Positions 1 to 6,341 of a stretch of 6,341 nucleotides of DNA are shown here, piece after piece. The translations under genes were made by a program, and so were the position numbers. The number at the start of each line of letters is the position of its first letter. Position 1 is the first letter of the stretch. Below the pieces are notes generated by a model. It was not told the DNA's origin. It ran no database searches and saw only the letters and a program-made list of their open reading frames with translations. The stretch is from a virus (taxonomy: Duplodnaviria > Heunggongvirae > Uroviricota > Caudoviricetes): IMG/VR virus record IMGVR_UViG_2547132270_000002; one strand, given 5' to 3'.

Positions 1-106
1 TCCCCGCCGTTGTTCACAAGCCAGCAGAAAAGGCCGAATTTTCGATGACTGCCTGTACATTGCAAAACAGTGGGCAGGTAAACAGAAAGGGAAAAAATGA
101 CAGTCT

Positions 107-160
107 GAGAGCCACTTTCACAACGGCTCTCCATTACAAAGCCCATCTACTGGTGGGCTT
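107..160. other. Two adjacent perfect stem-loops of unknown function
   Basis: Seen in sequence: gagagcc (107-113) pairs with ggctctc (125-131) around an 11-nt loop; aagcccatc (139-147) pairs with g-tgggctt (152-160), 9 bp including one G-U, around a 4-nt loop. No U-tract follows on either strand. Confidence 0.45.
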
Positions 161-274
161 GATAATGGCTTATACCCTACACGGGATAACTTAACTGATA
201 TCCCTTTTAACGGATAAAGGTGTTCAAGCCTGACACATCATGCGCTGTATCGTCGCTGTATTCCCGCATTAACC

Positions 275-475
275 ATGACCGTAGCCCGATGGGGAACTCC
301 TCTGCGCGAGTGTGCGGAAATAATCAAAAACGATGCACACCGGGTTTTTACCGCGCTAATGATTCGCGGGTTTGTCCCTCATGCTCGCCAGTCCTGTGCG
401 AGGGTGGAAGAAACAGGGCATGTATTCAGGAGCGTGCGACCACGGTCGCACGGTATATTTGTCAGGAGGTTGTGA
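275..475 (+). CDS. Hypothetical small basic protein (66 aa); weakly supported
   Basis: ATG at 275, TGA at 473-475 overlapping the next ATG in a TGATG arrangement. About 12 K/R against 5 D/E by my count. No recognisable SD upstream, and a second frame (220-585) is also open over the same DNA, so the frame call is uncertain. Confidence 0.25.
   Translation: MTVARWGTPLRECAEIIKNDAHRVFTALMIRGFVPHARQSCARVEETGHVFRSVRPRSHGIFVRRL
433..452. other. Perfect GC-rich palindrome cgtgcgacc-ac-ggtcgcacg (hairpin or operator-like dyad)
   Basis: Seen in sequence: 433-441 is the exact reverse complement of 444-452. It sits 11 nt upstream of the AGGAGG at 464-469 and is followed by the U-rich stretch gtatattt. 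Confidence 0.5.
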
Positions 476-585
476 TGAAAGAGTCGCAGAAATTTAATTC
501 AATAATGGAACGATTCTGTTCTCCTGAGCGAGAGGCTTACAATATGCATTCATTGAACGCCTGTTGTAATATCGCCAAACATTAA
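475..585 (+). CDS. Hypothetical small protein (36 aa) with a strong ribosome-binding site
   Basis: ATG at 475 preceded by AGGAGG (464-469) with a 5-nt spacer; TAA at 583-585. Product MKESQKFNSIMERFCSPEREAYNMHSLNACCNIAKH. I recognise no homologue. Confidence 0.3.
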   Translation: MKESQKFNSIMERFCSPEREAYNMHSLNACCNIAKH

Positions 586-717
586 TCAGGTGCACGAGAT
601 GTCGGCTAATACTGACCCTGACGAAATGTGGCGCTGCTTTAATCTGAAAGATGGTGCAGACGACCTGTAGTTCGCATCCATTCCTGATTACCCTATTCAA
701 GTTGATGAGACAGAAAC

Positions 718-963
718 ATGACAGCTGCTAAAGAGCAGATTGAATATGAGCTAAATGTATTCTTCGCGTCCGCCCTTGGTGATGTGTTTAAAAGTTGCCG
801 ACTGGCTGAAAGCGTATTGGATTACCAGATCTCTACTGTTAGTTTTCCAACGGAAAAAAACGCCTGGCTGGAGCTAGGTGAATTACCCGTGATTATCGAG
901 TTGTCTAACGGACGTCGCTTTGAGATTAGTGCGTCTGAATGGTTGCAAATCACACCGCTTTAA
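718..963 (+). CDS. Hypothetical acidic protein (81 aa) immediately upstream of cos; accessory (moron) position
   Basis: ATG at 718 with a weak SD-like GAGA 7 nt upstream; TAA at 961-963. Protein-like composition with 12 D/E against 6 K/R, no transmembrane-like segment. Same orientation as the late and head genes. Not recognised from memory. Confidence 0.55.
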   Translation: MTAAKEQIEYELNVFFASALGDVFKSCRLAESVLDYQISTVSFPTEKNAWLELGELPVIIELSNGRRFEISASEWLQITPL

Positions 964-1038
964 ATTAAGCCCGCAGCCCACCTTGGCTACTGGCATTCGC
1001 TAGTAGCTGGGTCCTTTCCAGCGATCCGGCAGGCTACG

Positions 1039-1050
1039 GGGCGGCGACCT
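1039..1050 (+). other. cosN: cosN 12-nt cohesive-end sequence GGGCGGCGACCT
   Basis: Exact match to the lambda 5' cohesive end as I recall it, preceded by ...TACG as at the lambda right end. Nicks are expected at 1038/1039 on the top strand and 1050/1051 on the bottom strand. Confidence 0.9.
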
Positions 1051-1090
1051 CGCGGGTTTTCGCTATTTATGAAAATTTTCCGGTTTAAGG

Positions 1091-1106
1091 CGTTTCCGTT
1101 CTTCTT
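1091..1106 (+). promoter_or_regulatory. cosB R3 element (gpNu1 binding site)
   Basis: cgtttccgttcttctt resembles the R1 core cgtttcctttct and lies about 50 bp from cosN, as lambda R3 does. An A/T-rich spacer (1110-1140) follows, where the lambda IHF site I1 lies. Confidence 0.65.
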
Positions 1107-1146
1107 CGTCGTAACTTAATGTTTTTATTTAAAATACCCCCTGAAA

Positions 1147-1162
1147 AGAAAGGAAACGACAG
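1147..1162 (-). promoter_or_regulatory. cosB R2 element (gpNu1 binding site)
   Basis: agaaaggaaacgacag is the perfect reverse complement of the R1 16-mer at 1188-1203. Confidence 0.8.
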
Positions 1163-1187
1163 GTGCTGAAAGCGAGCTTTTTGGCCT

Positions 1188-1203
1188 CTGTCGTTTCCTT
1201 TCT
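1188..1203 (+). promoter_or_regulatory. cosB R1 element (gpNu1 binding site)
   Basis: ctgtcgtttcctttct forms a perfect 16-bp inverted pair with R2, 25 bp apart, ending 24 bp before the nu1 ATG. Confidence 0.8.
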
Positions 1204-1227
1204 CTGTTTTTGTCCGTGGAATGAACA

Positions 1228-1747
1228 ATGGAAGTCAACAAAAAGCAGCTGGCTGACATTTTCGGTGCGAGTATCCGTACCATTCAGAACTGGCAGGAAC
1301 AGGGAATGCCCGTTCTGCGAGGCGGTGGCAAGGGTAATGAGGTGCTTTATGACTCTGCCGCCGTTATAAAATGGTATGCCGAAAGGGATGCTGAAATTGA
1401 GAACGAAAAGCTGCGCCGGGAAGTTGAAGAACTGCGGCAGGCCAGTGAGGCAGATCTCCAGCCAGGGACTATTGAGTACGAACGCCATCGACTTACGCGT
1501 GCGCAGGCCGACGCACAGGAGCTGAAAAATGCCAGAGACTCCGCAGAAGTGGTGGAAACCGCATTCTGTACTTTCGTGCTGTCGCGGATCGCAGGTGAAA
1601 TTGCCAGTATTCTCGACGGGATCCCCCTGTCGGTGCAGCGGCGTTTTCCGGAACTGGAAAACCGACATGTTGATTTCCTGAAACGGGATATCATCAAAGC
1701 CATGAACAAAGCAGCCGCGCTGGATGAACTGATACCGGGGTTGCTGA

Positions 1748-1773
<26 letters not shown>
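1228..1773 (+). CDS. nu1: Terminase small subunit gpNu1 (181 aa)
   Basis: ATG at 1228, TAA at 1771-1773. The protein MEVNKKQLADIFGASIRTIQNWQEQGMPVLRGGGKGNEV... matches lambda gpNu1 as I recall it, including the N-terminal winged-HTH region and K35 (AAG at 1330-1332). Sits directly downstream of cosB. Confidence 0.97.
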
Positions 1774-5454
<3,681 letters not shown>

Positions 5455-5474
<20 letters not shown>

Positions 5475-6341
5475 TCTCCCGCATATTGCCAGCATGGCCT
5501 TTAATGAGCCGCTGATGCTTGAACCCGCCTATGCGCGGGTTTTCTTTTGTGCGCTTGCCGGCCAGCTTGGGATCAGCCGCCTGACGGATGCGGTGTCCGG
5601 CGACAGCCTGACTGCCGGAGAGGCACCCGCGACACTGGCGTTATCCGTTGATGATGACGGACCACGACAGGCCCGTAGTTATCAGGTCATGAACGGCATC
5701 GCCGTGCTGCCGGTGTCCGGCACGCTGGTCAGCCGGACGCGGGCGCTGCAGCCGTATTCGGGGATGACCGGTTACAACGGCATTATCGCCCGTCTGCAAC
5801 AGGCTGCCAGCGATCCGATGGTGGACGGCATTCTGCTCGATATGGATACGCCAGGCGGAATGGTGGCGGGGGCATTTGACTGCGCTGACATCATCGCCCG
5901 TGTGCGTGACATAAAACCGGTATGGGCGCTGGCCAACGACATGAACTGCAGTGCAGGTCAGCTGCTTGCCAGCGCCGCCTCCCGGCGTCTGGTCACGCAG
6001 ACCGCCCGGACAGGCTCCATCGGCGTCATGATGGCTCACAGTAATTACGGTGCTGCGCTGGAGAAACAGGGCGTGGAAATCACTCTGATTTACAGCGGCA
6101 GCCATAAGGTGGATGGCAACCCCTACAGCCATCTTCCGGATGACGTCCGGGAAACACTGCAGTCCCGGATGGATGCAACCCGCCGGATGTTTGCACAGAA
6201 GGTGTCGGCATATACCGGCCTGTCCGTGCAGGCCGTGCTGGATACCGAGGCTGCAGTGTACAGCGGTCATGAGGCCATTGATGCCGGACTGGCTGATGAA
6301 CTTGTTAACAGCACCGATGCGATCACCGTCATGCGTGATGC
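5455..6341 (+). CDS. C: Prohead protease / scaffold-related protein gpC (partial; 3' end beyond the window)
   Basis: GTG at 5455 preceded by GAGGAGGAG (5442-5450), overlapping the B 3' end by 20 nt. MTAELRNLPHIASMAFNEPLML... matches lambda gpC as I recall it. The serine in NDMNCSAGQ is at codon 166 (AGT, 5950-5952). Open to the window end. Confidence 0.95.
6169..6341 (+). CDS. nu3: Scaffolding protein gpNu3, nested in-frame start inside C (partial)
   Basis: In-frame ATG at 6169, 714 nt downstream of the C start, which is the same offset as nu3 relative to C in lambda. Called from established lambda gene organisation; the local SD is weak. Confidence 0.6.
   Translation, partial: MDATRRMFAQKVSAYTGLSVQAVLDTEAAVYSGHEAIDAGLADELVNSTDAITVMRD

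Follow-up and report, generated by a model that had tools for sequence, protein, structure and literature searches.

Lambdoid phages carry accessory genes between the Rz lysis gene and cos, such as bor in lambda and rha in P22 and phi80. The locus described here uses the same slot, which lies after the holin, lysozyme and Rz genes and before cos and the terminase gene Nu1 and is highly mosaic. Its accessory gene encodes a 67-residue protein of the phage protein family phrog_4439; the protein is not homologous to Bor, and it is specified by a separate small ORF whose start overlaps the stop codon of an Ant/Rha-like gene. Within phrog_4439, the peptide encoded in our sequence is identical to the RefSeq protein WP_000187850.1 over residues 37-67, which comprise the core RRCSQASRKGRIFDDCL and a basic tail, although only this C-terminal half of the protein lies in the sequence under study. 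Ribosome modulation factor (RMF) is, like the 67-residue protein, small and basic, but the 67-residue protein is not a member of the RMF family. With sigma-factor region 2 there is no sequence relationship, and the helical resemblance to that domain is common to many unrelated bundles.

The window analyzed here is a stretch of 6341 nucleotides that constitutes the entire whole-genome shotgun contig AEJY01000192.1 (L027; assembly GCA_000208505.2), to which it is 100% identical. Positions 1009-1300 of the window are 97.9% identical to the cos/nu1 region of lambda and of DE3 by BLAST; together with the ORF map (Table 1), this identity identifies the window as the head-gene region of a lambda-like prophage. 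We conclude, with a probability of about 0.93, that bases 2-100 hold the final 32-33 codons, with the stop codon, of a real phrog_4439 gene, read in frame 2 of the + strand of this lambda-like prophage and cut by the end of the contig. The gene belongs to an already catalogued, uncharacterised phage family, and its truncation at a contig end is ordinary.

The intact gene in related loci

Because the window is identical to the whole of AEJY01000192.1, its edge is the physical end of a draft-genome contig, and because the contig starts inside the gene, the truncation is already present in the deposited assembly. The sequence-only reading had suspected that the window edge cuts into the 3' end of an upstream gene, and it had named upstream extension as the check. 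The upstream sequence was recovered from L026, L001, L013, L016-L019 and L023; frame 2 is continuous in all of them and runs upstream to an ATG in L026 and its collinear relatives, which bears out the suspicion. A complete ORF with its own start (~65-75 codons) is thus absent from the window and its contig and present in L026 and the collinear relatives.

L026 is an independent assembly (Logan SRR024110_243, 22.8 kb) whose portal protein is identical to that of the window. Compared with window positions 4-6341 (6338 bases), it displayed 0 substitutions and two single-base gaps, and it extends 2875 bases further upstream; its source may be a near-identical strain rather than the same strain. 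The complete ORF in L026 begins with an ATG at 2769, in frame with window frame 2, and window 5-100 corresponds to the last 32 codons and the stop of the 67-codon gene. Using the A6 run of the window, the product is 67 residues long (MTPIDFIHKNVTTELIKFGYDQNAAMTGADMAVEHYRRCSQASRKGRIFDDCLYIAKQWAGKQKGKK), and this exact sequence is named hypothetical protein in databases, mostly of Escherichia albertii. The one-residue variant WP_000187850.1, a hypothetical protein of E. coli in RefSeq, ends at the equivalent of window base 100 and is encoded at L001 2894-3097 and L013 3394-3597, and the same gene is called in five further collinear loci that are up to 98.6% identical to window 4-4963.

As for the origin of the contig break, repeat collapse during assembly is a plausible cause, since the segment at the 5' end of the window is present at a median of 2 places per E. 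coli genome that has it. For annotation, these results fix one contig end, where + frame 2 is the partial CDS of a known uncharacterised phage family, and they reveal a gene split in the deposited assembly that gene finders would miss or miscall.

Both gaps in L026 fall in A-runs that are one base short relative to the window, namely the run preceding the stop codon (window 92-97; L026 2965-2969) and a run at window 848-854 (L026 ~3724). Each gap disrupts a reading frame that the window and its relatives preserve, converting the 67-aa gene into a 98-aa call and the 81-aa ORF located before cos into a 52-aa call. The collinear relatives have A6 before the stop, as in the window, whereas L026 has A5 and its ORF runs on to 98 aa. 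Both A-run differences look like homopolymer miscalls.

The same region varies in length elsewhere. In a Shigella/E. coli variant (L002 ~3081-3100, corresponding to window ~84-100), an extra A in an AAAG run upstream of the A6 gives a product of 70 aa with the tail RQKREKMTT. This tail variant occurs on >200 contigs and is without annotation in the L002 RefSeq genome. It seems that the basic tail can accommodate frameshifts in its A-runs.

Table 1. Features of the 6341-nt window, with strand and the basis on which each was assigned
Feature	Position	Strand	Basis or remark
Contig-end bases TCC (TTA in all relatives)	1..3		Probable assembly-end artefact; real breakpoint less likely
3' fragment of 67-codon phrog_4439 gene (codons 36-67 + TGA)	2..100	+	Translation, PHROG match, relatives, substitutions
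A6 homopolymer before the stop; its length sets the C-terminal tail and stop position	92..97	+	L026 and relatives compared
Two adjacent stem-loops after the stop	107-113/125-131 and 131-145/154-168 (107..168)	+	Inverted repeats I3 and I2
81-aa hypothetical ORF between truncated gene and cos	718..963	+	Gene call in contig and relatives
Lambda-type cos region	1009-1227	+	BLAST to lambda
Terminase small subunit Nu1	1228-1773	+	PF07471 Phage_Nu1
gpA terminase large subunit	1748-3673	+	Gene calls and Pfam families of L027
gpW	3670-3876	+	Gene calls and Pfam families of L027
Portal gpB	3873-5474	+	Gene calls and Pfam families of L027
S49 protease/scaffold gene, runs off right contig end	5455 onward, to 6341	+	Gene calls and Pfam families of L027

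Assignment of the coding frame

To the sequence-only reading, three frames had appeared open at the left end of the window, and a six-frame reading of the first 150 bases agreed. Frame 2 of the + strand is open from base 2 and closes at a TGA at 98-100 (PRRCSQASRKGRIFDDCLYIAKQWAGKQKGKK followed by the stop), frame 3 runs open from base 3 as far as a stop at 192-194, with an ATG ORF at 45-194 (49 aa) inside it, and one frame of the - strand is open from 146 down to base 1. Frame 1 of the + strand and the other two - strand frames contain stops within 1-150. With 3 stops in 64 codons, the chance that a stretch of 33 codons is open is (61/64)^33, or ~0.2, and three open frames of six across 100 nt is unremarkable. 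Chance alone can be expected to produce an open stretch of this length, so that the choice of frame must rest on homology.

The 32-aa peptide of + frame 2 matched phrog_4439 with an E-value of 9.8e-14 (52.2 bits) over profile positions 37-66 of 74, and a full-length 67-aa relative matched the same family with an E-value of 1.5e-34. We then compared the window with the homologous genes of Edwardsiella, Serratia, Pantoea and Gilliamella across 26 ungapped codons. Substitutions at frame-2 codon positions 1, 2 and 3 numbered 40, 45 and 88, respectively, with 50 synonymous versus 58 non-synonymous codon changes. This third-position excess reads as the signature of a translated frame 2 under purifying selection. 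Counting stops in the alternative frames across the homologues did not separate frame 3 from frame 2. The earlier view that the coding assignment is ambiguous therefore stands for the 100-base fragment taken alone, on which three frames are open, and falls once homology and substitutions are used, which pick + frame 2.

Sequence of bases 1-3

BLAST matches to the left end of the window all begin at base 4, and this holds for complete E. coli genomes, IMG/VR contigs, the collinear loci and L026 alike. None of the viral, genome and metagenome collections contained an exact match to window bases 1-33 or 1-40. At this edge the window has T-CC-CCGCCG, whereas all relatives have T-TA-CCGCCG. The junction is CATTACCGCCG in L001, L002, L016-L019, L023 and L026, and the form expected of the intact gene is ...CATTACCGCC.... 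The presence of CC rather than TA at bases 2-3 changes the Tyr36 codon from TAC to CCC (Pro), at a position where Tyr is nearly invariant in the family. We regard bases 1-3 as probably a contig-end error, which is the most economical reading because the window is itself the contig and the zero-substitution assembly L026 reads TTA, and we flag these three bases as unreliable.

The phrog_4439 family and its predicted structure

The core encoded in the window matches the conserved motif H-Y-R-R-C-S-Q-A-S-x-K-G-x-I-F-D-D-C-L, except that the preceding Tyr reads Pro. A word-indexed search returned 33 close homologues, 66-94% identical among aligned members and all named 'hypothetical'; they come from Escherichia, Shigella, Enterobacter, Klebsiella, Leclercia, Citrobacter and Lonsdalea. 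When 1.84 billion representatives were searched in full with a HMMER profile, 104 clusters (50% identity) were obtained at E <= 1e-3, nearly all of 50-115 aa, and the range of the family is ~100 clusters at 50% identity in Enterobacterales and Gilliamella. The few long hits (P0073 and similar, of TPR/NB-ARC type) were rejected as repeat-driven false relatives. Conservation is concentrated in an N-terminal M-x-P-x-x-F-I, in G19-Y/F20 and in the core HY-R-x-S-QAS-KG-x-F-DDC-L, and the Lys/Arg-rich tail that follows the core is variable in length and sequence. Distant members of the family do not always retain the two cysteines, which makes an essential metal site or disulfide unlikely.

An AlphaFold2 model built on a 27-sequence alignment (pLDDT 88.3, pTM 0.75) places long helices at residues 3-17, 22-38 and 48-64 and a short helix at 41-44, and the protein is accordingly predicted to be a soluble helical bundle of three long helices and one short helix, with a basic tail. 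With Foldseek, the viral models (BFVD) yielded matches to small, unnamed phage proteins alone, all at E >= 0.008. Pfam profiles gave no relative beyond the weak RMF match considered below, NCBIfam gave no match for either the 67-aa protein or its Ant/Rha-like neighbour, a profile search of PDB sequences gave nothing significant and no sigma factors, and literature searches on the protein accession, PHROG id, contig and run accession returned no papers.

Two sets of matches were considered and set aside. PPR-repeat and miscellaneous PDB matches are helical-hairpin noise, with per-domain E-values of ~100 and a whole-sequence E-value of 0.0016 that arises from summed repeats. The match of residues 29-56 to RMF (PF04957) scored 14.0 bits (E 0.054) against a gathering threshold of 27.9 bits, and only 1 of 56 family members matched.

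Genomic neighbourhood

The gene order is holin, (DUF1327), lysozyme, Rz-type lysis protein, a 198-aa Ant/Rha-like gene, the 67-aa gene, ~620 nt, the 81-aa ORF, cos and Nu1, and the holin, lysozyme, Phage_lysis, 198-aa, 67-aa and Nu1 genes are all on the + strand in L026, L001, L013 and L016-L019. The ATG of the 67-aa gene overlaps (ATGA) the stop of the 198-aa gene (L026 2176-2772), whose product matches phrog_63 (anti-repressor Ant) with an E-value of 5e-12, as well as phrog_4936, and is called 'Rha family transcriptional regulator' by RefSeq in some genomes. This ATGA overlap suggests that translation of the 67-aa gene is coupled to that of its Ant/Rha-like neighbour. If lambda is a guide, the 67-aa gene would be expressed as part of the late operon; a scan of window 1-1300 yielded no promoter-like site. 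Alternative cassettes fill the slot in other phages, including a KilA-N gene with an 85-aa ORF, a Phage_pRha gene, and bor/ybcV-type genes.

In two species of Edwardsiella and in Pantoea, the homologue again overlaps the stop of an Ant/Rha-like gene through ATGA, near lysis and terminase genes. At two Serratia loci the homologue instead lies directly after a CII-like gene and before replication genes; the downstream gene is confirmed as O-like in L030, and we infer that it is O-like at the second locus as well. In Gilliamella, a small unknown gene, itself downstream of an HTH gene, comes before the homologue, and a replication initiator comes after it. The family has thus changed between late and early operons but kept its place next to regulator genes, and what is constant across these loci is adjacency to a lysis-lysogeny regulator, not a fixed operon. 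The early-operon homologues of the Serratia and Gilliamella prophages are found at L030 3024-4979, L031 2367-4179 and L033 3745-5087.

Proposed role

An enzymatic or structural (virion) role for the 67-aa protein is unlikely. On the basis of the predicted fold, the charge and the gene neighbourhood, we tentatively suggest a small accessory modulator that binds a partner macromolecule, a proposal that is possible but more apt to be wrong than right. Such a modulator would act in a lysis-lysogeny or early-replication circuit, where its partner could be a regulator protein or, by way of the basic tail, nucleic acid.

A broader and still more doubtful idea is that phrog_4439 constitutes an unrecognised class of small helical lysis-lysogeny modulators, each of which partners whichever regulator its gene directly follows. 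In Escherichia, Edwardsiella and Pantoea the partner would then be an Ant/Rha-like anti-repressor, and in Serratia a CII-like activator. The small protein might act by stabilising or inhibiting this regulator, or its basic tail might tether the regulator to RNA polymerase or nucleic acid. A family that has no assigned function and that sits beside lysis-lysogeny regulators is a cheap candidate for knockout or pull-down.

Alternative readings of the locus

A truncated frame-2 gene has to be weighed against two other accounts of the first 100 bases. The real gene could be the frame-3 ORF at 45-194 (49 aa) or the - strand frame across 1-146, as both of these frames are open in the window, frame 3 is free of stops here in all homologues examined, and the A-run of L026, one base shorter, joins frame 2 to frame 3 in its 98-aa call. 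However, neither of these peptides has a PHROG match, and that of the frame-3 ORF has no Pfam match either, whereas frame 2 carries the third-position substitution excess and is the frame annotated by RefSeq and other gene callers. The - strand counterpart of window 1-146 contains stops in 5 of 6 divergent homologues, and the L026 fusion appears to be a sequencing error, given the second ORF-breaking homopolymer undercall in the same assembly; we find coding in either of these frames scarcely credible. Frame 2 might also be a dead remnant from which no protein is made, in which case a rearrangement at base 3/4 (a deletion, an IS insertion or a prophage junction) would have spared no more than the 3' third to half of it. 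The mismatch to all relatives does fall exactly at the window edge (bases 2-3), two adjacent mismatches at a given spot would be expected from point divergence with a probability of only ~2e-4, given 98.6% identity to the closest collinear relative, and the TCC prefix was found nowhere in three large collections. Yet the window is a whole contig, and a few wrong bases are common at contig ends; three bases are too few to identify a foreign element, and L026 reads through this point with the canonical TTA and an intact gene, with zero substitutions over 6338 bases. We therefore judge a remnant very improbable and retain the reading of a real gene cut by the contig end.

With respect to function, the 67-aa protein could mimic a sigma-factor region-2 domain, or otherwise bind RNA polymerase, and so serve as a phage transcription modulator. 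Its structural superpositions on sigma region 2 show a sequence identity of 3-12%, and equally good structural matches to terpene synthases, cyclins and a spidroin imply that the resemblance is that of a generic helical bundle. A Pfam sigma-region match was found in 0 of 56 family members, in line with the profile search of PDB sequences, and we consider this sigma-like role improbable, if somewhat less so than a dead remnant. An accessory modulator of the kind suggested above is the reading that we prefer, with the reserve already expressed.

Sequence between the truncated gene and cos

The two adjacent stem-loops that follow the stop codon (Table 1) belong to a stretch, 95-225, whose RNA fold has a free energy of -43.1 kcal/mol (z -5.75). 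The stem-loops were not called in a consensus terminator scan, because they have no T-run. Variants in L002 keep the stem pairing via G-U on the + strand, whereas the variants in L014 do not compensate. The 95-225 structure may serve in mRNA stabilisation or processing, or it may be a sequence that marks a recombination boundary.

Matches from other lambdoid phages and genomes begin at 130-132. Window 4-130 is carried by 18 of 5426 complete E. coli genomes, whereas the sequence from ~131 onward is common to thousands of genomes, and the rarity of the former against the commonness of the latter therefore places a mosaic breakpoint ~30 nt past the stop codon (~130/131). The stem-loops straddle this breakpoint.

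Some part of window 1-700 was matched in 4064 of 5426 complete E. coli genomes, and, among the matches listed, many span ~131-452 at 92-97% identity, in a stretch that is often unannotated. The 131-168 hairpin lies at the start of this stretch, and a terminator-like hairpin and T-run at 433-452 (+) close it. An Rfam search of window 1-1300 gave only chance-level matches to miRNA models over the cos region and none for 131-452. Candidate identities for 131-452 are a conserved non-coding element, a small RNA or an unannotated small gene.

Within the same region, window 220-585 (+) contains a 121-codon ORF with a GTG start, residues 24-44 of which match phrog_6954 'Rz-like spanin' with an E-value of 1.1e-7; this ORF is perhaps a remnant, perhaps a spurious member of the family. 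At the equivalent position (L002 3205-3381), the annotation of relatives instead has a small hypothetical gene on the - strand. The 81-aa ORF further downstream has no PHROG match and is listed in 189 blocks of the assembly collection; like the truncated gene, it belongs to the uncharacterised accessory ORFs found in the slot between Rz and cos.
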